In this document: piece after piece, positions 9,346-60,812 of the stretch
Layout of the letters: the number at the start of each line of letters is the position of its first letter
How positions within the stretch are numbered: the first letter of the stretch is position 1
Source of the DNA: an uncultured Candidatus Binatia bacterium
GTDB lineage: Bacteria; Desulfobacterota; Binatia; Bin18
Length of the DNA: 64,000 bases
Reading direction: 5' to 3'
Assembly (NCBI GenBank): GCA_965214605.1
Contig: OZ243961.1
Coordinates: 1,103,008 to 1,167,007 of the forward strand
Notes under the pieces: model-generated
Seen by the model: the letters and a program-made list of their open reading frames with translations, nothing else
Database searches by the model: none
What the model was told of the DNA's origin: nothing
Made by a program: the position numbers and the translations under genes

Positions 9346-10499
9346 ATGGCGGATCAGCTACAACATGATTTGCTGCCACGGGCGAGCCACGATGAGCTCG
9401 CACGACAAAACTTTGTGCAAAGTCTGAAATTACACCTGGCAACAAAAATCGCCCCGGGCAATGAGCTTGTTTATGAAAAGCGGGCCAAACCCCGCTTTCA
9501 ACAACAGACAGGACGTCCGCCCAAAGACCGCCACGAAGTTCGCCGGAGCATGCGAGACGAGCCGTATTATCAGGCCTGGGGCTCACTGCAACGGACCAGT
9601 CAGGAGATGATGTGGGAGGCGGTCGACTCAAGCGTTGCGCGCCAGCTGCCTGAGCTTGTTGTGCGTGCCAGTCACAACGCCAAGCCCCTGGGCTCCTTAC
9701 GTCTCGATCCGGATCTTGCCATCCCAACCTATCACACGGCAGTCGATATTCACTGCCAACCCGGCGGCTATCATACTGAGTGCGGTCCGCAGGATGATGT
9801 GGCGGCTGGAGCGCTCTACGATCGCGCCGTCCATATCTACGCCATGAGCCGTCTGGGGACATTGAATGACGAGATGGGACAGTCGGTCGTGGTGTATTTG
9901 CAGCACCGCTATCCGGATTGCCGACCCACCCGAATCCTTGACATGGGCTGCACGGTTGGCCACAGCACGCTCCCCTATGTCGATGCCTATCCAGCGGCCC
10001 AGGTTTTTGCCATTGACGTGGGCGCGCCGGTGCTCCGCTACGCTCATGCCCGGGCTGAAGCGCTGGGCAAATGTGTTCATTTTTCGCAGCAAAACGCTGA
10101 ACGGACCACGTTTGCCGAAGCATCGTTTGACCTCATTGTGTCGCATATTTTGCTACACGAAACGTCGAGCAAGGCGCTCCGTAACATCGTTCGAGAAAGC
10201 TATAGGCTGCTCACTCCGGGCGGTCTGATGATCCACCAGGAGGTCTCCCAGTATCACGGCTTAGACCCCTACCAAGCCTTCATCCTTGATTGGGACACGT
10301 ACAACAATAACGACCGTTCTGGGGGACTCTGCGTGACACAGATCTGACCGCGATTGCTGTTGAAGCCGGCTTTGCCAAAGAGCAGGTCGTTGAGACGATG
10401 ATTCCGAGCGCCTTCCAGGTCAAAGGGCGCGCCCGACGTCTCCAGGCCGGCGACTTTGGCGGCAGCGGACAATGGTTCATCTTTGCTGCTACCAAATAG
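9346..10499 (+). pseudogene. class I SAM-dependent methyltransferase interrupted by a 1-nt frameshift near 10312
   Basis: ILDMGCTVGHS (motif I) and LLTPGGLMIHQE. The reading frame ends ...WDTYNNNDRSGGLCVTQI* at 10347. A shifted frame from 10314 reads PFWGTLRDTDLTAIAVEAGFAKEQVVETMIPSAF...FIFAATK* up to TAG 10497-10499. Confidence 0.7.
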
Positions 10500-10523
10500 T
10501 ACCAGGCTGCGGGGAAAAGAACG

Positions 10524-10856
10524 ATGACACGGACAGCCAAGGGCCAGCGTCCAGCCTTTTTTGACGACCCGCAGATTGACAAGCTGTTAGCGATAATCAT
10601 GGCTCTGGCCGGAGAAGTGAGCGTACTGCGGGAGCGGCTCGATACGGTCGAAAGACTGCTCGAGGCCGAAGGCCTCGTATCTCGTCGCAATATTGAAACC
10701 TACCGAGCGGACGCCGCCGCGGCTGTGGAACGAGAACGCTGGCGGGGAGAATATCTGGAGCGGATTCTGCGGGTTCTCCACCAAGAGCGGGAGACGATAG
10801 CAGACAGCAAAACGCTCCCATCCCACGAACGGGCGGTTCGCACCGGAACTTTGTAA
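10524..10856 (+). CDS. hypothetical small protein (coiled-coil-like)
   Basis: 110-codon ORF starting at an ATG, with charged heptad-like sequence. No recognised domain. Confidence 0.5.
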   Translation: MTRTAKGQRPAFFDDPQIDKLLAIIMALAGEVSVLRERLDTVERLLEAEGLVSRRNIETYRADAAAAVERERWRGEYLERILRVLHQERETIADSKTLPSHERAVRTGTL

Positions 10857-11518
10857 GAGCCAAGAGCGCAGTTTTGGCCTTTAACTTTCAGGATTTTCCC
10901 AATGTCTTTGATTCTCGGTGTTGACCTTGTCGGCACGTCGGCACATACACAAAGGCCATTTTTCGGCATCTCGCCCATCCTGACAGAAGGATGTCATCGA
11001 CCGACATCAGCATCCAGAATCGAGGTAATGCGCTATTTTTCCTTGATTTTCGAATAGCGACGAGGCGTGCATTGTCGTCTCCGATGCGCTTCAACGCGCC
11101 TGAGTTTCAGTCCGGTCGCTTGCGGTATGCTACGGTTCCATCCCCACCTGAAACAGGAACATTTACAGTTGACCAGGCACGGCGTCAGGCGGCGCTCGCC
11201 ATCGCCCGCATCAAGTACGTCGCGGAGCACCTGCCCAACGTCGGGGTAACCTTCGACAAGTTTCCTGTCGTCGCCCACGCATCGGGGCGCTCGACAAAAC
11301 ACAGCGCATCGGGCAGCGCCTCAACCCGAACTCAAGGACATGCGGTGGACCCTGCTGGGGATCCCGGAAGCCTCGGTTCCGAACACAGTATTGCCTTCTG
11401 CAACCTTATCGACTATAGTAGCCGGCGACCCAGCGAACCTACGTTACCAACCCGCCATTCTTCGGGCAGCCAAGTTTCTGTGGCGGCAAGAATATCGTCG
11501 AGCGAGGGCGGCACACCC

Positions 11519-12067
11519 ATGCGAATACGCCACTACTCCATAACGAAACGCCTCGTCTTCGTTGGGCCGTTTCTGTATGTGCTCGTGCTGGCGACGGCAT
11601 CCCTCACGGGGCGGGGAGAAATCTACCCCTTCTTTGCCTGGGACTTGTTCGCGGGGGTGCCGGCGGGGTGGGTCATCCAGACGCCCGCCGTGGTGGCGCA
11701 TCCGATGGACGACTCCCGAAATTTAGGGGGGGGGGGGGGACGCTGGGTCATTCCGTCCCCCGACCCCCGGCATTTGAAGGTGCTGCGCGAGGTCCTGCAC
11801 GCGTGTGAGCGCCGCGCGGCCCCCGCGTGCCGGTCCGCCGTGGCCCGCCTGCTGCTCCCCCTCGTCGTTGACGGCGTGGGGAGCGGCGCCGTGGAGTTCA
11901 GTCTCGTCTGGGCGGCCGTCGATCTGCGCGCCCTCCGGGAGGACATCTGGGCGCTCGCCGCCGGCCGCACGCAGCGCATGGACTATGCCCGGGTCGCTAC
12001 GGTGCTCTCGCGGTGGCGCGCGGCCGCGGCCGGCGGCCTGCACCGGGTTGATGGGGGCACCCCGTGA
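11519..12067 (+). CDS. hypothetical membrane-anchored protein containing a G14-encoded Gly run
   Basis: ATG 11519. MRIRHYSITKRLVFVGPFLYVLVLATASL is a TM anchor, followed by EIYPFFAWDLF. The stop overlaps the next start as GTGA. The tracked 358-aa ORF (10991..) probably over-extends upstream. Confidence 0.5.
   Translation: MRIRHYSITKRLVFVGPFLYVLVLATASLTGRGEIYPFFAWDLFAGVPAGWVIQTPAVVAHPMDDSRNLGGGGGRWVIPSPDPRHLKVLREVLHACERRAAPACRSAVARLLLPLVVDGVGSGAVEFSLVWAAVDLRALREDIWALAAGRTQRMDYARVATVLSRWRAAAAGGLHRVDGGTP
11726..11739. repeat. homopolymeric G14 tract inside a coding sequence
   Basis: Counted directly: ...aatttag then 14 G then acgctgg. It encodes GGGGG in the current frame. Confidence 0.95.
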
Positions 12068-13416
12068 ACGCTGCGCGGCTGCAGGGCCGGCTCCGCAAGA
12101 CCCTCCTCCACGTGGAGACGGGGGAGCGGCGGCGCGCGGCCGACTTCTCGCGGGCCGCGCGCCACATCGCCGTGCTGGTCCGGTTCTATTACATCTTCGT
12201 CGCGTACCTCCTCTTCGGCCGGTTCAAGGTTGCGAATTTGCTCCACGGCATTCCCCCGCCCGCGCCGTTGTGGCCCCTGGACCTGATGGCGACAGTCGCG
12301 GGCTCCGCGTGGCTCGCGTGGGGCGAGCTCCTCACGGCGGCGGGCGTGGGGGTGGCGCTGCTGGCGGCGCTGTGTCCGGGCGTGCTGCTCTTCCGGCTTG
12401 GGGTCTTCGTCTATCTCTTCATCGGCATCGCGCTGGCCAACTCCTATGGCGCCATCAGCCATGGGCGCCATCTCTTCCTCTATGTCTCCTTCGGGTTGTT
12501 GTGGCTGCCGGCGGCCATCGGCCGCCCGGAGCGCATGGCGCGCCGGGAGGCGATGGCGTGCAACGCGGCCTTCTGGCTGACACAGGCACTGCTGCTGCTG
12601 CCCTACAGCCTCAGCGGCTTCTGGACACTCTGGCGCAGCAACCTCCAGTTGGTGTCCCTCGACTCCTTCGTCCGGCTGGTCCTCGCCGGCCTGCTCGAAC
12701 AGGCCGGCGGGCCCCTCCCGCCGCTGGTCCCGTGGCTCGCCCAGTACCCCTCGGTCGGCCAGGGCTTGTATCTGGCGTTTTGCTATGTGGAAGGGCTGCT
12801 GCTCGTCAGTCTGTTCCGCCCCCACTTGCAGCGAGGGTTCGGCCTGGTCGTCATCGGGTTCCATCTCGGGACGCGGTGGCTGCTCGGCTTTGCCGCCGCT
12901 CCCTACCTCGTGCTCTGGTTCCTCTTCCTGGTGGCTTCGCCGTTCGCCGCGGCCCGGTTCTCCCCGGTCGCCACGGCGCGCTCGCTGCCGCTCCTCGGCC
13001 TCCCCTTCCGCGCGTGGGCGCGCTGGAGGCGCCCGGAGAAAGGGGCGGAGAAGGCGTGGCTGGTGTATGATGGCGAGTGCCCGTTCTGTTCGCGTTACTC
13101 ACGCATGGTCGATGTGAGAGATGCCATCGGCGAACTCATACTCGTGAACGCCCGCGATGGGGGGCCGATCGTGGACGAGATCAAGGCCCTGCCTTGGGAT
13201 CTCAACAGGGGCATGGTACTGAAACTGAACGGACGATACCGGTTTGGCGACGAGGCCCTGCACACCTTGGCGCTCCTGTCGCGGAAGAATGGCGCATTCG
13301 GCATCCTGAACCGTCTCGTGCTCGGTTCGCGCGCGGTCGCATGGTTCGCATACCCGCTGTTGAAGCTCTGCAGGAGGCTGGCGCTGATGGCGAAAAGGGT
13401 TCCGGTCCTGAAGTAG
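12064..13416 (+). CDS. fusion protein: polytopic membrane domain (possibly HTTM-like, unverified) + C-terminal DCC1-like thiol-disulfide oxidoreductase (DUF393)
   Basis: About 330 aa with multiple hydrophobic spans. Then WLVYDGECPFCSRYSRMVD carries the DxxCxxC motif that defines the DCC family, and the rest of the C-terminal domain is DCC-like. Confidence 0.75.
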   Translation: MNAARLQGRLRKTLLHVETGERRRAADFSRAARHIAVLVRFYYIFVAYLLFGRFKVANLLHGIPPPAPLWPLDLMATVAGSAWLAWGELLTAAGVGVALLAALCPGVLLFRLGVFVYLFIGIALANSYGAISHGRHLFLYVSFGLLWLPAAIGRPERMARREAMACNAAFWLTQALLLLPYSLSGFWTLWRSNLQLVSLDSFVRLVLAGLLEQAGGPLPPLVPWLAQYPSVGQGLYLAFCYVEGLLLVSLFRPHLQRGFGLVVIGFHLGTRWLLGFAAAPYLVLWFLFLVASPFAAARFSPVATARSLPLLGLPFRAWARWRRPEKGAEKAWLVYDGECPFCSRYSRMVDVRDAIGELILVNARDGGPIVDEIKALPWDLNRGMVLKLNGRYRFGDEALHTLALLSRKNGAFGILNRLVLGSRAVAWFAYPLLKLCRRLALMAKRVPVLK

Positions 13417-14110
13417 GAAACTCTTCGTAACGTTCACCTTCGCGACGGGGATCACCGACGCTACTGCTTGATGACGAAACCTTCATCAAGCGGGGAGATG
13501 CAGCGAATGCTGGCGGAGGGCATTGCGTCCGAGGACCGGCGGATTGTCGATCTGACGGTGCTGGATCTAAACGTTCAGTCGCCGCAGCACGGTCCCGACC
13601 TTCGGTGGGTGCAGGCTCACCCGTGGAGCTCAACCCGCCCCATCGCCGAGGTCCGTGCCCTACAGCGAGTATTGATTTCATGTCACGCCCAGGTCCGATT
13701 TCGCCCGGAGGACGTTTGGGAATAACCTCGGGGCGGAATGAATGGTTGGTGAAAGCCATGGAGAATTATATTGAGATTGCGCCTTAGGTTCACGGTCGGT
13801 CCCCGTTGATGGCCGTGGGCCGTCACAAGCGGGAAGAGGCGCAGGAATGGTTGGCGGCGTGTTTCCGGTGTCCGGCGTATTCGCTAGGCTGGCGTCGGTC
13901 GGGGCGGGTCTGCAACCGTTCCGGATGATCGATGGGAGGGGGCAAAAGGACCTGACGCCGCCCTCAACCGGCGTCAAGCCGGTGAAAGAATCGTCATCGA
14001 GAACCGCCGTGCGCTCGACGACAACGCATGGCGGCGAGCGTTACCAGCCTCTTGCGGGACCTCAATTCGATTGTGTATGATGACACCGACACGGTCACCC
14101 GTACGGCCCG

Positions 14111-44235: not shown

Positions 44236-46077
44236 CTAGGCCTCGGCTGGTGCCGGTGAATCGCTCGCCGCGTTTGGATCTTTGCCAAAGAGTTTAATCA
44301 TCTCGGCAATCTCGGCCCCATCCAGGACTTCTTTCTCCAGGAGATGCTCAGCCATCTTGTGCAAGACCTCGATATTGGTCTGCAACAGCACCTTGGCTCG
44401 CTCGTAGGCGTTCATGATGATCCGACGAACCTCGCTATCAATCTCAATCGCCGTCTGCTCAGAGTATTCTTTCATTTGGGTGAAATCACGGCCCAGAAAA
44501 ATCTGTTCATCTTTCTTACCAAACGTCATTGGGCCGAGCTTTTCGCTCATACCCCACTCACACACCATACGACGGGCCAGTTCGGTCGCTTTCTCGATAT
44601 CGTCGCCCGCGCCGGTCGTGGTATGGCCGAGCACGATCTCTTCCGCCACCCGACCGCCAAACATAATCGCCAAACGCTTGAGCACGTACTCTTTGGAGAA
44701 GGTATGACGGTCGTCGACCGGGACCTGCTGGGTCACGCCGAGTGCCATCCCACGCGGGATAATCGAGACTTTGTGGACCGGATCAGTGCCCGGAGTGAGT
44801 CCAGCGACAAGCGCGTGGCCTGCCTCGTGATAGGCAGTGTTACGTTTCTCTTCAGACGTCAGAATCAGACTGCGCCGCTCGGCTCCCATTAAAACCTTAT
44901 CTTTGGACAGCTCAAAGTCTTCCATACTGACTTTTTCTTTGTTTTGGCGGGCGGCCAGCAGGGCGGCCTCGTTCACGAGGTTCTCGAGGTCGGCCCCGGA
45001 GAACCCCGGCGTTGTGCGGGCCAGGGTTTCGACATCAACGCTCTCGTCGATTGGCACATGGCGACTGTGAACACGCAGAATCTCTTCGCGGCCGCGGACA
45101 TCCGGACGGGGCACCACCACCCGCCGATCAAATCGCCCCGGCCGCAGCAGGGCGGGATCGAGAACATCAGGCCGGTTGGTGGCTGCAATAAGAATGACCC
45201 CCTCATTGGCCTCGAAACCGTCCATTTCGACCAAGAGCTGGTTAAGCGTCTGTTCGCGCTCGTCGTGGCCGCCCCCCAGCCCCGCCCCACGGTGGCGTCC
45301 AACCGCATCAATTTCGTCGATGAAGATCAGACATGGAGCCTGTTTTTTGCCCTGGATAAACAGATCGCGGACGCGGGATGCCCCGACCCCGACAAACATC
45401 TCGACAAAGTCTGAGCCGCTTATTGAGAAGAACGGCACCCCGGCCTCGCCGGCAATGGCACGGGCTAGCAGCGTTTTCCCGGTTCCCGGTGCGCCCACCA
45501 GCAATACGCCCTTGGGAATACGACCGCCTAGGCGGGTAAACTTTTTGGGATCTTTCAGAAAGGCAATGATCTCTTCGAGCTCTTGTTTGGCCTCCTCAAT
45601 ACCCGCAACGTCGCTAAAAGTGACTTTTTGCTGATTTTCGGTCAACACCTTGGCCCGGCTCTTACCAAACGACATAGCCTTGCCCCCACCCATCTGCATC
45701 TGGCGCATAAAGAACACCCAGACACCGATGAGGAGCAACATCGGGAACCATTGGACTAAGACCGCCACATACCACGGATCGCCCTGTTCGGGCTTGGCGG
45801 CAACCCGCACGCCCTGCTCGCGCAGGGTCCGCAGCAATTCAGGATCATCGGGCGAGGGCGCAAAGGTTTTAAAGCGGCTGTCGTCACTAAAGCGGCCATA
45901 AATCGTCTGCCCCTGTATGGTGACTTCGGAGACCTCACCGCGTTTGAGGGCGGAGAAGAAATCGCTAAACACCACCTCAGGTCTTTGAGGCTGCTGGCGG
46001 CTGAATAAATTAAACAGCAGGAGAATCATGAGTCCCAACACCAGCCATAAAGCGAGATTGTGTGAAACTTTGTTCAC
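44236..46077 (-). CDS. ftsH: ATP-dependent zinc metalloprotease FtsH
   Basis: [11 protein letters not shown] Walker A, IIFIDEID Walker B, the SRH region, and the HEAGHA zinc site. GTG 46077 ([13 protein letters not shown]) is preferred, with an alternative GTG at 46101. The tracked N-terminal extension to 46236 overlaps tilS. Confidence 0.95.
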
Positions 46078-46108
46078 TCCTTGCCCCTTTCCATCATACA
46101 CGGCCAAC

Positions 46109-47656
46109 CTAACACAGTTCTGCTTTCTCCGGCAATGGGCTGACCACACACTGACACACCGAACGCGTTGTCGGCGTGACCAGGGCGGTTTTCCCCCGGA
46201 CATAACCGGGCACCCATGCCACTTCAGAATCATCATCTCCCAAAACGACCAAGGGAAAAATCAGACGCAGACGGCGCGGCAGCTTAGCATCACTAAATAC
46301 ATTGTAAACTTTCTTTCGGCCAGCCATGCCTAGAGGAAAAATACGATCTCCGGGCCGCACACTGCGCACCCGAAGGCCTGACGACACCAGCGCGGCGTCA
46401 AAGAACGTCCGCCACGGATCGGCCGTTCGCGCCTGGGCGGGTGTAGCCTGCCACGCGATCGGCTCGCTCAGCCAACACTGCCAGCCGCTGCCGGGTATGT
46501 GGGGGATAGCGGGCAGTCCCAGCCTTTGCCCGCATGAGAGGAGGTAGGTGTAGGATTCAGAGGTAAAACGCTTTGGTTCAGCAATAAGACAGTCCTGTTC
46601 AACCCGGACCTGGAGACTGCCGGGCAGTTCAACAGTGCCCCGAACCCGCCCTTCGGCCAAGGCCCGAACCTGTTCAAGGTGAATAAAGCCAAGGTGGTGG
46701 CCAATGAGTTCGAGCCACTGGCGTAAAATCCGGACGCGCAGGGCGACAGGCTCAGTCGCCCAGGCGCGGACGCGCAGGCCGGGCATGCCGTCCCGCTTAT
46801 ACTGAACGCGCAGTCGGGCCGCCGTTGTCGCGGTTTCGAGCCAAGCCTCTTCTTCGCGTAAGGTATCGGCCAGATGGGCCAAATGACGAGAGATGCGAGG
46901 CGAGAACTCGGTCGCCAGCAGGGGCAACAGGCGGTGTCGAATGCGGTTGCGAGCATAACCGAGATCGGCGTTACTGGGATCGGTCACATAAGACAACCGG
47001 CGGTCGGTCAGATACTCCAAGACTTCCTGCCGGCTGCAGTCCAGCAGCGGACGAATGAGCCGCTTGTCTCCCTGCGTTCCGATCGTGCGACTTGGCGGAA
47101 TACCGCTTAGGCCGCGCCGGGCACTGCCCCGCAGGAGCCGAAACAGCACGGTTTCGGCCTGATCGTCCCGGGTGTGGGCCAGAGCTAGATAGTCCAGCCC
47201 TTCTTGCTCCATCACCGCTTCAAAAAATTGATAGCGCGCGTTGCGCGCCCAGGCTTCAACGCCGTGAGGGGGGGGGGAGAAGTCCAGTTTCTTTATAAAG
47301 CAGGGCAGCTGCCACAGCCGACACAGCCGTTCAACATATCGCTGTTCGTGGTCGGCTTCCGGCCGCAGCCCATGGTTGACGTGGAGTACGCTGAGGTGTG
47401 AGGGGACACTGCTCGGCTGGGCTAGCAGGGCGCTCAACAAGGCGACAGAGTCTGGTCCACCCGAAACCCCGACTCCGAGACGAACGACCTGGTTGCCCGG
47501 CCCAGCCTGTCCTGGGGAAGAAAAAAACCGCCTCAGAGCAGTCTCGACTTTACGTTCGAGCGGCAAAACCCCTCCCTTTTTTCCCCCTGAACGGGGGCTT
47601 TGACCTTCCATACGTCTACCGTACGGCCCCTTGTGACGTTGCGGGAACCTTGGCAT
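46109..47656 (-). CDS. tilS: tRNA(Ile)-lysidine synthase
   Basis: [15 protein letters not shown]-loop, immediately upstream of ftsH (conserved synteny). The start may be the internal Met at 47611. The gene contains a C10 run (plus-strand G10 at 47268-47277) encoding SPPPH. Confidence 0.85.
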
Positions 47657-55430: not shown

Positions 55431-56648
55431 ATGACGACGAGACAAGATAGAAGCTCTCTCACTCTCCAAAGCCTGTTGCTTGCCGTCTGCCTAGTCCTGT
55501 CGACCGTTCCGGGCTTCTCGTCTCCACCCCCCGGTGTCAGCCTCATCGAGGGCAGTCTGACCCCTTTTTTTCACAATCGGCCCCTTTCGGCCTTTCGGGT
55601 CTACGCATTCCACGGCCACACTCCGCACCCGATTCCGTTTCAGATCGACGAACGGGACCAACGAGAGCGCTGGATTGTGAGGCACGGTTCAAAAGCCAAG
55701 CAGGACAGCCCTGCCGCGGTGTTTGACGCCAACGACGCCATTGTGGTGATGAACCGCGACCTGGGGCAGCGTGGCGACCCGTCCGTTCTTCCGGACCAGG
55801 CCAAGCGCTGGGCCGAGATCCGGGTCGGAGAAGAGACGAACCGGCTGGGTTTTGTCTATGTCGGGGTCTTTCCCCCAACACACACCCCACCACGCATCAC
55901 CCAGCCTTACGCCCGCTACGACCCGGCCACCGACCGGATCTATGCCGAGCGCTACGCCCTGGCCTTTGACGCGCCACTGCCAACCCATTTTGCTCCGGTT
56001 GAGCGGCTCGGCCACTTTGGGACCAATACTATAACCGGAGTCAAAGCCGGCGCCGAGGTCCGCTTGCTAGGCGGTTTGCTACGCTTCCAGCGTACCGAGG
56101 TCGATCTACGCAGCAGCTTGCGTGGCTACCAGTCCGGCCCGGTTCGGGTAATCCGCCAGGCGCGCTACTGGGTGCCGCTGCCGTTTGGCCTGCGCACCTC
56201 GGGCAAGGTCAATCTCATTTTCTACCGGGACTTTGTTGAGGGCAGCGCACGGATCAAGCTGAAAATCCCGCCCCGCCTCGTGCTGGCGGAGGGCGAATTC
56301 ACGACCTATTTTGACTTTCTGGACCTGCGCGGGGCGCGTCCGCTGCTGAATGGCCGCCTGAGCCGCTGGGCGGCACTGTGCCTACCGAGCGGCCGGACAC
56401 TTGTTCTTATTCCCCGGCTTGAGGACGGCTTGAGCAGGCTTGAGCAGCGCGTCTATTACGGTGGCGCTCAGCCCCATTTCGGCTTTCAGTTTTCGGAAAT
56501 TGGTCGTCTGGAGAGCGGCTCGCATCGCCTATCGGTTTTCGGCCTGCTGCTCGACACGACCGCCCCGGACACGGTTCAGCGGGCCGCCGATATCTTTCTC
56601 TCCCCCCCCCAAGTGGCCGCGCAGCTACTCAATGCCCAGCTGGACTAG
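55431..56648 (+). CDS. hypothetical exported protein
   Basis: ATG 55431. The signal-like segment LLLAVCLVLSTVPGFSS and about 400 aa with no motif I recognise. A C9 run at 56602-56610 encodes SPPQ near the C-terminus. Confidence 0.6.
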   Translation: MTTRQDRSSLTLQSLLLAVCLVLSTVPGFSSPPPGVSLIEGSLTPFFHNRPLSAFRVYAFHGHTPHPIPFQIDERDQRERWIVRHGSKAKQDSPAAVFDANDAIVVMNRDLGQRGDPSVLPDQAKRWAEIRVGEETNRLGFVYVGVFPPTHTPPRITQPYARYDPATDRIYAERYALAFDAPLPTHFAPVERLGHFGTNTITGVKAGAEVRLLGGLLRFQRTEVDLRSSLRGYQSGPVRVIRQARYWVPLPFGLRTSGKVNLIFYRDFVEGSARIKLKIPPRLVLAEGEFTTYFDFLDLRGARPLLNGRLSRWAALCLPSGRTLVLIPRLEDGLSRLEQRVYYGGAQPHFGFQFSEIGRLESGSHRLSVFGLLLDTTAPDTVQRAADIFLSPPQVAAQLLNAQLD

Positions 56649-57716
56649 AGACCAGGCGGCAACCGCCATCTGACGACACTGTTCCCTATAGCCCAACGCC
56701 TGAGGCGAGCTGGCGTTGCCGTCAAGTCCGCGCTTGTACACCCCCTGGATAATGGCGCCAATACGGAACAGGGCAAATACAATGTAGAAGGTCCAGTTCG
56801 GAATCTGCTTTCGTCCGGTCAGCTGGCAGTAGCGCGCCACATAGTCGTGCTCAGACGGAATCCCATAGCTGGCGTAATTAAGCCCAGTGATATCGCCCCG
56901 AATATCATCCGGCACATGGTAGGGGAGACAGTTGTGGGCCAAGTCGGCAAATGGAGCACCGAGCGTACTCAACTCCCAATCGACGACCGCCAACACACGC
57001 GGTTCGGTCGGATGAAAGATTATATTCTCTAAACGAAAGTCACCGTGGGAGATTGTGGTTTCGTCATCGACTGGCAGATGCTCGGGCAGCCACGCTATGA
57101 GCCGTTCCATCTCTGGAATATCTTCGGTTCTGCTGGCCGCATACTGTTTTGTCCAACGGTCAACCTGACGCGCCATATAGCCGCCAATCCGTCCATAGCC
57201 CTCTAGGCCAACCGCCCGAAAATCAACCTGGTGCAGGGCGGCGATCGCCTCGACCATTGCCGCATACACCCGTCCCCGCTCGTTCGGCGTCATATCACGC
57301 AGCTCATAGCCGCGTAACACCCGTCCATCAATAAAATCCATCAGATAGAAATCTGTGCCGATCACAGACGGGTCTTGACACAGCACGTAGGGCTTGGCGA
57401 CCGGCACGTCGGTGTTGCACAGCGCTGAAATGATCCGAAACTCCCGGTCAACCGCATGGGCCGAGGGCAGCAGCTTGCCAGGCGGCTTTTTACGCAGCAC
57501 GTAGCGCCGGCCGGCCGTATCCGTCAACACAAAGGTCGGGTTCGACATACCGCCCCGAATCTGTCCAACATGCATGGGTGGGGTGAAGTCGGCTAGGTGT
57601 CGGCACATATAACGCTCAAGGTGAGCCTGGTCGAAGTGGTGTTGCTCAAGCACCGGGGCGGTATCGGTGGTCAGCGAAACCAGCGGTAATGCCTCGGCCT
57701 GAGCGTTGGTCGCCAT
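56625..57716 (-). CDS. phosphotransferase (APH/ChoK-like kinase, ACAD10/11 N-terminal-type) family protein, paralog 1
   Basis: AAGGAGAG SD 6 nt before ATG 57716. Motifs GGMSNPTF, HGDFRLENIIF and VVDWELS (Brenner/APH catalytic loop). Confidence 0.85.
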   Translation of the reverse strand: MATNAQAEALPLVSLTTDTAPVLEQHHFDQAHLERYMCRHLADFTPPMHVGQIRGGMSNPTFVLTDTAGRRYVLRKKPPGKLLPSAHAVDREFRIISALCNTDVPVAKPYVLCQDPSVIGTDFYLMDFIDGRVLRGYELRDMTPNERGRVYAAMVEAIAALHQVDFRAVGLEGYGRIGGYMARQVDRWTKQYAASRTEDIPEMERLIAWLPEHLPVDDETTISHGDFRLENIIFHPTEPRVLAVVDWELSTLGAPFADLAHNCLPYHVPDDIRGDITGLNYASYGIPSEHDYVARYCQLTGRKQIPNWTFYIVFALFRIGAIIQGVYKRGLDGNASSPQALGYREQCRQMAVAAWSLVQLGIE

Positions 57717-57739
57717 CGGTATCTCTCCTTGTCCGTCGC

Positions 57740-58828
57740 TCATACGCCCCGCTCAACCAAGTCCCAGGCGGCGGTCGCCAACTGCTTGCACTTTTCACCA
57801 CGGGTGATGGCTTCGGGCGAGCTGGCATTGCCATCAAGCGCCCGTTTGTACACCCCCTGGACAATTGCCGCCAGTCGGAAGAGCGAAAACACCACGTAGA
57901 AGTTCCAGTTTTCAATAGCCGAGCGGTCCATCTGTTGGCAGTAGCGAGCCACGCACTCCTGCTCAGATGGAATGCCGTAGGTGGTAACATTGAGGTGGGT
58001 GATGTCCCCCCGGATATCGTCCGGCACCTGATAGGGTAGACAGTTATAGGCCAAATCGGACAGGGGCGCACCGAGCGTACTCAGCTCCCAGTCAACAACG
58101 GCTAACACCTGGGGCTGGGTGGGATGAAACAGCAGGTTCTCTAAGCGAAAATCGCCATGCACAATCGTGGTCTCATCGTCATCCGGCAGATGCTCGGGCA
58201 GCCAGGCTATGAGCCGTTCCATGGCCGGCAGCTCATCCGTTTTGCTCGCCTCGTACTGCTTGGACCAGCGCCTGACCTGGCGGCCCATATAGCCGCCGAT
58301 CCGACCGTAGTCCTCAAGCCCAACCGCCCGGAAATCAACCTGATGGATCTTGGCCATAGTATCAATCATGGTTTCATACACCGCCCGCCGCTCGCTCGGA
58401 GCGAGGTCGGGCAGCTCATACCCACGAAACACGCGACCCTCAACAAAATCCATAATATAAAAATCCACACCCAGCACTAACGGGTCCTGACACAGGACAT
58501 GCGGTTTGGCGACCGGCACATCAGTATCCCACAGAGCCGAGATGATTCGAAATTCTCGGTCAACCGCGTGGGCCGAGGGCAGTAGCTTGCCAGGCGGTTT
58601 TTTGCGCAGCACGTAACGCCGTCCAGCCCCATCCGTCAAGATGAAGGTCGGGTTCGACATCCCGCCCCGCACCTGTCCAACCGATAGCGGCGGACTGAAG
58701 GCCTCGATATGTTCGGCCATGTAGCGCGCCAGCGCGGCCTCATCAAAACGATGCTGGTCAAGCACTGGAGCAGTCTCAGCCGTGAGCGAAGTGAGCGGGC
58801 TGGTCTCTACTGCCTGGATTGTCGCCAT
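57740..58828 (-). CDS. phosphotransferase (APH-like kinase) family protein, paralog 2
   Basis: AAGGAGAG SD before ATG 58828. Roughly three quarters of residues are identical to paralog 1 by eye, including the block RRYVLRKKPPGKLLPSAHAVDREFRIISAL. Confidence 0.85.
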   Translation of the reverse strand: MATIQAVETSPLTSLTAETAPVLDQHRFDEAALARYMAEHIEAFSPPLSVGQVRGGMSNPTFILTDGAGRRYVLRKKPPGKLLPSAHAVDREFRIISALWDTDVPVAKPHVLCQDPLVLGVDFYIMDFVEGRVFRGYELPDLAPSERRAVYETMIDTMAKIHQVDFRAVGLEDYGRIGGYMGRQVRRWSKQYEASKTDELPAMERLIAWLPEHLPDDDETTIVHGDFRLENLLFHPTQPQVLAVVDWELSTLGAPLSDLAYNCLPYQVPDDIRGDITHLNVTTYGIPSEQECVARYCQQMDRSAIENWNFYVVFSLFRLAAIVQGVYKRALDGNASSPEAITRGEKCKQLATAAWDLVERGV

Positions 58829-59491: not shown

Positions 59492-59735
59492 CGTGTATTC
59501 CTTTCGTGCCAAAAAATGGGCAGCCATGTTGCTTTTCGGGGGAGGGTGAGAACCTCTTGTTCGGCCTTAGAGTTATCCACTAGGTGGCTCAGCAAGGATA
59601 CTTTTGCCTAAAAAATCAGGGCCAGATGGCCGCTTCAGGGCCCTCCCCAGTGCAGGTACTCCAGTGTGGCACGATACATGCCTTTTCTCTACTGTACGAT
59701 GCCTCCACACTCACCCGGCAGGACAGGGAGAGACC

Positions 59736-60810
59736 ATGTATGACGCATGGGAGGGCTGGCTATGCCCGGGGGGTGACGCAATGTTCCCTCCTGAGGGGAC
59801 ACCGCGGCCAGCTGCAGAATTACTGCCGGAAAAGATTCAAGGTCTGCCCGATGGAGAAATTCTCCGTCTGCAGGAAGCGGCCGAAGGCACTCTGCTGAAT
59901 ATGGGATTCACCTCATAGCAGCTATAGCGACGGGACTGGGATGGAAAAAATCGGGCCGTTTGATCCACTGCCACGGATCATTGACGCACCGGAGCGGGCG
60001 GACATGGGTTGAGCGTGGCCTCAAGCAGCGCCGACAGACCCTAAAACTTTTCATCGACGCTATTTACCACGACTCAAAAATCTTCAAGGACAGCGTTATC
60101 CTCGAAGAGACTGTTCGGCCACCAGGGTTCGCCCCTCGTGTGTCAGCCTTGATCCCTCGTGAGACCTGGGGTGCCATATTACTGTCACCGAATCCGAGAC
60201 CGCGACAGCCAAATCTCCATCTTGGAAGATAACCTTCGCTGCCCATCCGAGGCCTCCTAGGGACTTCACTGACAGCCCATGAAGCGGACCTTCCCTTGGT
60301 CTTTGAAGCCTCTCAGAGCCGCCCGGTTGGGACTTACCCGGACCGCCCCGCTGTCCTTAGCCCCAGGCTCGCCTGAACACGCAAACGGTCGCAGCGGTGC
60401 TCCAACTCAGCCTCTTTTGAGTCTTCGTTTCCAGCTTAGCAAACGGGTGTTGAGTCGGGCGAGAGGGGGGGGGGGACAGCCAACGGATTTGTCCAAACGC
60501 GAACGCCCCTAGGGAGCGAGCGTGTTGTCTTGCCGGATTGATGATGATTTTCTTGATCCAAAGGGCGGGGCTGACTCAATGTCCGGCATCCTGGGCATCA
60601 TGGATGTCTACAAAGCTGGCCCCATCGGTCGACGCCTCCGGCACGGACATTACCGACGAGAAGGTCATCTGCGGCTATGTACAATCTGTCTGTGTCGGGA
60701 AGCCTCTAAATCGCCACTGCGCCTTGGAGCATTTTGAGCAGGATCGAAGAGGGCATAGTTTGCTGTCTAGGCCAATTGGCGGATCTATCCCAGCAGCCGG
60801 GGGATTGGCC
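59736..60810 (+). pseudogene. decayed circularly permuted type-2 ATP-grasp gene (multiple frameshifts/stops, 3' truncated)
   Basis: Fragments in three frames are collinear with the intact paralog at 61694-64000:
- GEILRLQEAAEGTLLNMGFTS*
- GPFDPLPRIIDAPE
- WVERGLKQRRQTLKLFIDAIYHDSKIFKDSVILEE
- L..NPSLPIRG...LPLVFEASQSRPVGTYP
- CRIDDDFLDPKGGADSMSGILGIMDVYKAG
- LAPSVDASGTDITDEKVICGYVQSV. Confidence 0.75.
60465..60475. repeat. homopolymeric G11 tract inside the ATP-grasp pseudogene
   Basis: Counted directly (gagag, then 11 G, then acagc). Confidence 0.95.
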
Positions 60811-60812
60811 GA

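Follow-up and report, generated by a model that had tools for sequence, protein, structure and literature searches.

A G14 homopolymer in a two-gene membrane module of sponge-associated bacteria: a candidate phase-variable locus

Described systems and the locus in comparison

Phase variation through slippage at homopolymers typifies host-adapted pathogens and marks genes whose products are under fluctuating selection by the host or by phages. G/C homopolymers of about 8 or more have been described as drivers of such variation in Campylobacter, Neisseria, Bordetella, and Mycobacterium (PMC8355987, PMC5084427, PMC1891110, PMC10334774). The locus described here was found in the window, by which is meant the whole 64-kb stretch of DNA that was analyzed, and centers on a run of 14 consecutive G residues (G14) within ORF1, the first gene of a two-gene module (Table 1). 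Like the contingency loci of Campylobacter jejuni, Neisseria meningitidis (hmbR/hpuAB), Bordetella pertussis, and Mycobacterium tuberculosis (glpK), it has a G/C run longer than 8 inside an ORF, a change of one base truncates the product, and the length of the tract differs among close relatives. The product is also probably exposed in the envelope, and relatives carry further runs in a promoter region and beside a DNA-methylase fragment. It is unlike them in being known from sequence alone, in hosts that are uncultivated sponge symbionts and probably of Binatia-like background, and in the position of its tract, which lies mid-gene in a loop and not near the 5' end; furthermore, the window genome tolerates a C10 run in the essential gene tilS, and the target family is uncharacterized. 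The mechanism considered is of a known kind; what is new is the gene family, the sponge-symbiont hosts, and a mobile module that crosses phyla. Full-text literature searches returned no report of contingency loci or homopolymer phase variation in sponge symbionts.

A second parallel is offered by Helicobacter canadensis, for which switching of protein C termini by homopolymer tracts is described (PMC2823697). The likeness is limited to one relative of the window module (L011), in which a C15 run lies ~25 nt before the overlap of the two genes, within the last 10 codons of the ORF1 homolog, and where slippage would change only the tail of the protein and the position of its stop relative to the ORF2 start. 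The window tract is different in that its slippage truncates ORF1 mid-way.

The gene pair also resembles one described in a 2026 preprint (bioRxiv 10.64898/2026.08.19.745780), which presents a DUF5819 protein with an N-terminal helix that adjoins a 447-aa protein combining HTTM and DCC1-like domains; together the two are predicted to form a GGCX-like complex. The pairs share a two-gene architecture and a neighboring membrane protein of ~447-450 aa that ends in a DCC1-like domain; ORF1 has the same arrangement of an N-terminal transmembrane helix and a ~150-aa domain beside a DCC1-like membrane protein, and the pairing is kept at ~47 loci. At the level of sequence they are unlike: the Pfam model for DUF5819 matched none of 25 ORF1 family members, and that for HTTM none of 30 ORF2 family members, at E up to 1, and the ORF1 model has no significant match to a solved structure. 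Since ORF1 gives no DUF5819 sequence match, the resemblance is architectural, not a demonstrated membership. The preprint reports no homopolymer tract in its pair, which again sets the window pair apart.

Table 1. Coordinates of the features of the module and its tract within the window
Feature	Position	Strand	Description
Promoter-like site TTGCCT-17-TATAGT	11391..11419	+	In host DNA bordering the module, ~100 nt 5' of ORF1; count of such sites not above chance in shuffles
ORF1-ORF2 module	11459..13459	+	2.0 kb; 68.5% GC vs 58.6% in the rest of the window
ORF1	11519..12067	+	182 aa; N-terminal membrane anchor (helix 5-30) and folded domain of ~150 aa; family rare and without a name
Tract-bearing loop of ORF1	11702..11740	+	Residues ~62-74, between beta-strands 52-61 and 75-78
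G14 homopolymer	11726..11739	+	Gly70-74 of ORF1; candidate slipped-strand switch; G10 at the equivalent site in L082
TTG-initiated ORF, C-terminal half of ORF1	11774..12067	+	97 aa; start overlaps the -1 stop as TTGA; separate gene call in L082
Stop in the -1 frame	11775..11777	+	Reached at lengths 10, 13, 16...; product 84-87 aa; stop used in L082
Stop in the +1 frame	11806..11808	+	Reached at lengths 12, 15, 18...; product 94-97 aa
GTGA overlap, ORF1 stop / ORF2 start	12064..12067	+	Possible translational coupling; also in L001, L011, and L104
ORF2	12064..13416	+	450 aa; polytopic membrane domain (~25-320) fused to a DCC1-like thiol-disulfide oxidoreductase domain (333-438, CPFC)

The two genes and the distribution of their module

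ORF1 gave no match in searches of Pfam and NCBIfam, and a word-index homolog search with it returned zero matches, although homologs exist. These were found through the neighbors of ORF2 homologs and by exhaustive HMMER searching, by which the family comprises 39 clusters among 1.84 billion (1.84e9) representative proteins and is therefore rare. A scan of JGI data with the family profile yielded one full-length homolog and 17 others, mostly short N-terminal matches, and no new tract. The AlphaFold2 model of ORF1, built on 31 family members (pLDDT 85.5), has basic residues before its N-terminal helix and a compact alpha/beta domain after it. Cys96 is invariant in the family, and Cys104 is invariant or nearly so. 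The loop that carries the tract is the most length-variable segment of the family; judged from the model, it may be an insertion-tolerant beta-hairpin loop, which forms part of the explanation that we favor. ORF1 is probably a membrane-anchored, extracytoplasmic partner of the membrane enzyme encoded by ORF2.

Many homologs of ORF1 (L004, L006, L008, L011, L012, L013, L017, L049, and others) are ~300 aa long and have an extra conserved C-terminal domain (..FFLHxxPxDxxDLPxxRRxYGFDNLDFxF..C..LPDYxIxxIxTGQF..) that is missing from the window protein. Other open frames over the tract were considered and set aside. A longer ORF (10991-12067) shows no GC3 signal upstream of 11519, and homologs begin at the ATG at 11519; the minus-strand ORFs (11623-11979 and 11723-12043) are high-GC by-products, as codon-position GC fits the plus-strand frame only. 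Rfam and tRNA scans detected a single tRNA-Met, which is unrelated to the tract.

The C-terminal domain of ORF2 matches PF04134 (DCC1-like) at 35.7 bits against a cut-off of 27.8 over residues 333-438; this model matched all 30 aligned ORF2 homologs, and C339 and C342 are invariant. The ORF2 model has a pLDDT of 86, and the best structural match of its membrane domain is the vitamin K carboxylase (GGCX), to which its fold may be similar. An earlier note on this DNA had proposed that ORF1 overlaps the downstream DCC-fusion gene through GTGA, and the overlap is present as proposed. A G-rich stretch lies directly 5' of the ORF2 GTG and could be a ribosome-binding site of its own, so that a polar effect of ORF1 truncation on ORF2 is uncertain.

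The module shares 77.6% nucleotide identity with a locus in a Bryobacterales MAG (L001 3406-5402), and the homology runs from 60 nt before ORF1 to 43 nt after ORF2, with clean boundaries on either side. The FtsH protein of the window (44236-46236) has its closest relatives at 89-95% identity, and the closest named ones, at 83-84%, belong to Ca. Binatia, 'Deltaproteobacteria', and Methylomirabilota MAGs. The foreign GC content and Bryobacterales-like sequence of the module, set against an FtsH of the Binatia type, suggest that the module was very probably acquired horizontally. No IS remnants were detected beside the window module by blastn or tblastx. Related IS630-like (HTH_33/DDE_3) sequences are found in Bryobacterales at L001 2241-3314 and 5755-6769 and at L101 2955-4028, and the pair there is flanked on both sides in a composite-transposon-like arrangement; such flanks may explain the spread among sponge symbionts of different phyla.

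ORF2 has 99 homologs, and a scan at one genome per species gave 80 loci, mostly in sponge-associated MAGs. These represent Bryobacterales, Ca. Poriferisodalis and other Acidimicrobiia, Dehalococcoidia, Caldilineaceae, Pseudomonadales, Ca. Entotheonella, and Ca. Binatia, and in ~47 of the 80 an ORF1 homolog lies directly upstream of the ORF2 homolog, a position that the ORF1 family always occupies. The gene pair looks both niche-specific and common to several phyla. Sponge-associated MAGs, belonging to lineages far apart from one another, are nearly the sole source of full-length ORF2 homologs (L002-L049).

Frame, consequences, and length variation of the tract

The tract lies in the context AAATTTA-G14-ACGCTGG on the plus strand. 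Counted from the ATG at 11519, it begins at an offset of 207 nt (69 codons) and occupies codons 70-74 (GGG GGG GGG GGG GGA), at 38% of the length of ORF1; the peptide around the glycines reads ..SRNLGGGGGRWVIPS.. / ..DDSRNLGGGGGRWVIPS... GC3 in ORF1 goes from 0.78 on the 5' side of the tract to 0.91 on its 3' side with the phase unchanged, indicating that the same frame is coding on both sides, and the alignment to a homolog with 57% identity passes through G14 with no change of frame. Together these observations place G14 in frame within a real gene, as the earlier note had read it (five glycines, with protein-like sequence to either side). The expected number of G runs of at least 14 in the window is 8e-4 under a first-order Markov model, and the observed G runs extend up to 6 and then, after a gap, to 10, 11, and 14. 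The run thus stands inside an ORF at a length above chance, as do the simple-sequence repeats (SSRs) of contingency loci.

The effect of a change in length was simulated for tracts of 8-20. Full-length ORF1 is obtained only at 8, 11, 14, 17, and 20, and any length that does not equal 14 modulo 3 truncates it, as at frame-shifting contingency loci; the prediction that a change of one base in either direction would truncate the protein is thereby upheld, with simulated stops in both alternative frames (Table 1). The off-frame products keep the membrane helix and the first strand and lose the Cys pair together with the remaining domain. Their stops leave 255-286 nt untranslated 5' of ORF2, and on the arrangement of the two genes a loss of translational coupling between ORF1 and ORF2 on slippage is plausible. 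It is possible, if speculative, that the TTG-initiated ORF represents a re-initiation product in the OFF state.

The sites equivalent to the tract are compared in Table 2. Tract length is polymorphic among close relatives, as at contingency loci: G6, G6, and G26 in three copies from the closest clade, a Bryobacterales MAG and its metagenome; C4, C6, C12 or more, C16, and C17 in Pseudomonadales; and G14 against G10 in the window strain. Both comparisons that the earlier note had called for, of tract length in relatives (G6 vs G26, C4/C6 vs C16/C17) and of the presence of a repeat at the same position in homologs, thus came out in favor of a variable repeat. In ~40 other homologs the runs in the loop are no longer than 5. 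The runs consist of G, encoding Gly, in one clade and of C, encoding Pro, in another, so that the recurrence is at the level of DNA and does not reflect selection for a given peptide. The G26 of L101, on a 5.9-kb contig, is one base short of the in-frame G27; its frame is uncertain, yet the difference of ~20 bases from the G6 paralogs is robust. In L103 a 1-nt deletion lies 30 nt downstream of the tract, and the intervening stretch reads GRDAH where GAMRY is found otherwise, which looks like the trace of a past tract frameshift that was later compensated.

Table 2. Homopolymer at the tract site in the window strain and its relatives
Lineage	Locus	Run	State
Window strain	Window	G14	In frame
Window strain	L082	G10	Illumina contig, 4.7x; ORF1 split
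Bryobacterales	L001/L002	G6	Gene intact
Bryobacterales	L018	G6	Copy truncated at its 5' end
Bryobacterales	L101	G26	Flanks match L001 at ~98% identity; assembled sequence is out of frame
Pseudomonadales	L008	C17	In frame, read as poly-Pro; assembly at chromosome level
Pseudomonadales	L103	C16	In frame only via a compensating deletion
Pseudomonadales	L102	C12 or more	Site falls in a scaffold gap
Pseudomonadales	L007	C6	Gene frameshifted
Pseudomonadales	L006	C4	In frame
P0004 lineage	L105	C8	In frame

Runs also occur elsewhere in the operon of relatives. Besides the C15 near the gene junction in L011, a G16 lies in a divergent intergenic region of L014 (2252-2267), ~200 nt upstream of the ORF1 homolog. 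In 6 of 55 loci the ORF1 gene contains a G/C run of at least 8, and in none does the ORF2 gene, which is 2.2 times longer at equal GC; in an unbiased subset of loci the enrichment is modest (P about 0.02-0.05). A scan of JGI metagenomes with the tract flanks and a variable gap between them gave no matches.

Several further observations concern individual relatives. The G16 of L014 lies ~20 nt upstream of the start of a minus-strand gene for an arylsulfotransferase-like lipoprotein. In L018, a second Bryobacterales copy of the module, homology to the first copy starts (at 2645) only 25 nt upstream of the G6, so that a rearrangement breakpoint adjoins the tract site. The ORF1 homolog of L104, a 66%-identical relative from a Logan assembly, shifts frame at a G8 (L104 74-81) at about residue 148; this is another position than that of the window tract, and the frame change reflects a second site of slippage or else an error in the reads. 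In L009 a C18 (2122-2139) lies inside a fragment of an N6/N4 DNA methylase (PF01555, C-terminal part only) immediately upstream of the ORF1 homolog, reading ..IACDISPPPPPRAW..; the methylase could be phase-variable in a phasevarion-like manner, could be decayed, or could display the same general tendency to runs.

A direct comparison within the strain is provided by the 90%-identity cluster of ORF1, which holds two further proteins, of 84 aa and 97 aa, both encoded on L082. This 2.6-kb SPAdes contig comes from a separate ENA assembly of Illumina data and is 100% identical to window positions 10308-12955 over 2.6 kb, except at the contig end and at the tract, where it reads TTA-G10-CC in place of TTA-G14-AC, that is, G10 with an adjacent A-to-C change. 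With G10, ORF1 is split into two genes that encode these proteins. The A-to-C beside the tract resembles A-to-C differences at the end of the contig and is error-like; with this and the low coverage, L082 is weak evidence for an OFF allele and was not counted as proof. The OFF-looking alleles are those of L082 and L101, both technically fragile, and the comparison was made on assembled sequence. An apparent OFF allele of the Pseudomonadales homolog, in P0143/L102, was rejected. In this Illumina MAG of the L008 species, the site (L102 2829-2975) contains an N10 scaffold gap, with poly-G junk (G20, G19) and sequence full of errors ahead of it and C12 behind it, which gives the false appearance of a split gene.

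Readings of the tract

On the reading that we prefer, slipped-strand mispairing at replication would frequently change the length of G14. Lengths of 11, 14, and 17 would leave ORF1 intact (ON), and other lengths would bring in a stop 36-70 nt past the tract, so that the product would lack the two conserved Cys residues along with the remaining domain (OFF); the untranslated interval before the GTGA-coupled ORF2 would then probably reduce translation of the second gene. This would make it a contingency (phase-variable) locus, carried by a 2-kb module that sponge-symbiont bacteria have passed among themselves by horizontal transfer. Three lines of evidence argue for it: the recurrence of runs in the same loop in unrelated lineages, the large differences in length among close relatives, and the contrast with ORF2. 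Telling against it are the fragility of the OFF alleles, the C10 of tilS, the modest enrichment, and the position of the tract in mid-gene. Weighing these, we give about even odds to control of ORF1, and probably of ORF2, by slipped-strand phase variation at G14. The view of G14 as a genuine hypermutable simple-sequence repeat is a part of this best explanation, which as a whole hangs in the balance. On this reading, switching would be frequent and reversible, and there would be a polar effect on ORF2 and an adaptive value. The candidate switch proposed in the earlier note has thus fared well as regards a hypermutable, recurrent, and length-variable tract, and less well as regards actual switching, since the OFF alleles of L082 and L101 carry technical caveats and the tilS tract is not adaptive.

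The main rival, and a serious one that we consider quite possible without favoring it, is neutral. It holds that a genome-wide mutational tendency expands G/C runs, which persist where the protein tolerates Gly or Pro, as in loops and tails, and that the frameshifted variants are ordinary deleterious mutations, decaying copies, or sequencing errors. The 64 kb of the window contain four runs of at least 9, among them the in-frame C10 in tilS and a C9 near the 3' end of another ORF. Because bacteria cannot do without tilS, its in-frame C10 can be no useful ON/OFF switch, and not every such tract is adaptive; the window genome seems, from these runs, to tolerate or generate long G/C runs generally, and the symbiont genomes as a group look prone to them. 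Consistent with the neutral account, no loop of ORF1 is less constrained than the one that holds G14, unrelated neighboring genes of relatives have long runs as well (for example the C18 in the methylase fragment of L009), the G6 and G26 copies include truncated, IS-flanked, and probably decaying ones, and the best assemblies show the tracts in frame. Yet ORF2, in the same genomes and with loops and low-confidence segments of its own, offers more than twice the sequence and carries no run of at least 8. Runs recur, moreover, at this operon in unrelated lineages, whether at the loop, the C-terminal junction, or the promoter region, and coding runs of 14-26 are normally purged by selection unless their variability is tolerated or useful.

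The earlier note had also allowed for an artefact, in which the sequencing chemistry or the construction of a consensus creates the run or its exact length. Miscounts of long homopolymers are well known in long-read consensus sequence, the two assemblies of the same strain differ (14 vs 10), and poly-G junk and an N10 gap fall precisely at the homologous tract in the Illumina MAG L102. This explanation is nevertheless extremely unlikely for the tract itself. Contiguous, in-phase, homologous coding sequence lies on both flanks, two independently made assemblies that differ in style both have a long G run at this site, which is therefore no artefact of one technology, homologs from other samples have long runs in the same loop, and under purifying selection the majority allele is expected to be in frame, as this one is. 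Uncertainty is confined to the exact length of the tract, within a base or two. Almost as hard to credit, and very improbable in our estimate, is an origin at the level of RNA or the ribosome, by which transcriptional slippage or ribosomal frameshifting would produce a mix of full-length and truncated ORF1 from DNA of fixed length. Long homopolymers can cause slippage of RNA polymerase, both off-frames here stop within 70 nt of the tract, and the TTGA overlap of the -1 stop with a TTG start would permit re-initiation; against this, the known slippage signals are mostly A/T runs, and the large differences in DNA length among relatives show that the DNA itself varies.

A broader picture can be drawn tentatively, and we hold it to be rather doubtful. 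ORF1-ORF2 would modify the envelope as a mobile system akin to vitamin K-dependent carboxylase, flanked by IS630-like elements in Bryobacterales and present in at least 5 phyla from sponges, in which tracts would have been gained independently in several lineages (at the loop, the ORF1/ORF2 junction, or the promoter) and would give stochastic ON/OFF expression in the host. If it is true, no contingency locus would have been described before from sponge symbionts, and this one would provide a handle on envelope features relevant to symbiosis. If the tract does switch, a horizontally shared and uncharacterized two-gene membrane system would be marked as a host- or phage-facing trait of these bacteria. 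Independent of this, short-read MAGs fragment or become corrupted at the long G/C tracts of these genomes, as in L102 and probably L082, and false pseudogenes can result; annotation pipelines should flag such tracts.

The other long runs of the window differ in their settings. The C10 of tilS is a plus-strand G10 at 47268-47277, lying in the minus-strand gene 46109-47656, where it reads ..FSPPPHG..; the identity of tilS is backed by PP-loop, TilS, and TilS_C domains. A histidine-phosphatase gene and a transglutaminase-like gene enclose 1.3 kb (59528-60812) in which no convincing ORF and no Rfam match were found, and this interval holds a G11 (60465-60475). The C9 (56602-56610) lies 13 codons before the stop of an uncharacterized ORF of 405-411 aa (55413/55431-56648), reading ..FLSPPQV.., and its slippage would alter the C-terminal tail only; the 3' end of this ORF overlaps the end of a convergent APH-family kinase gene (56625-57743).
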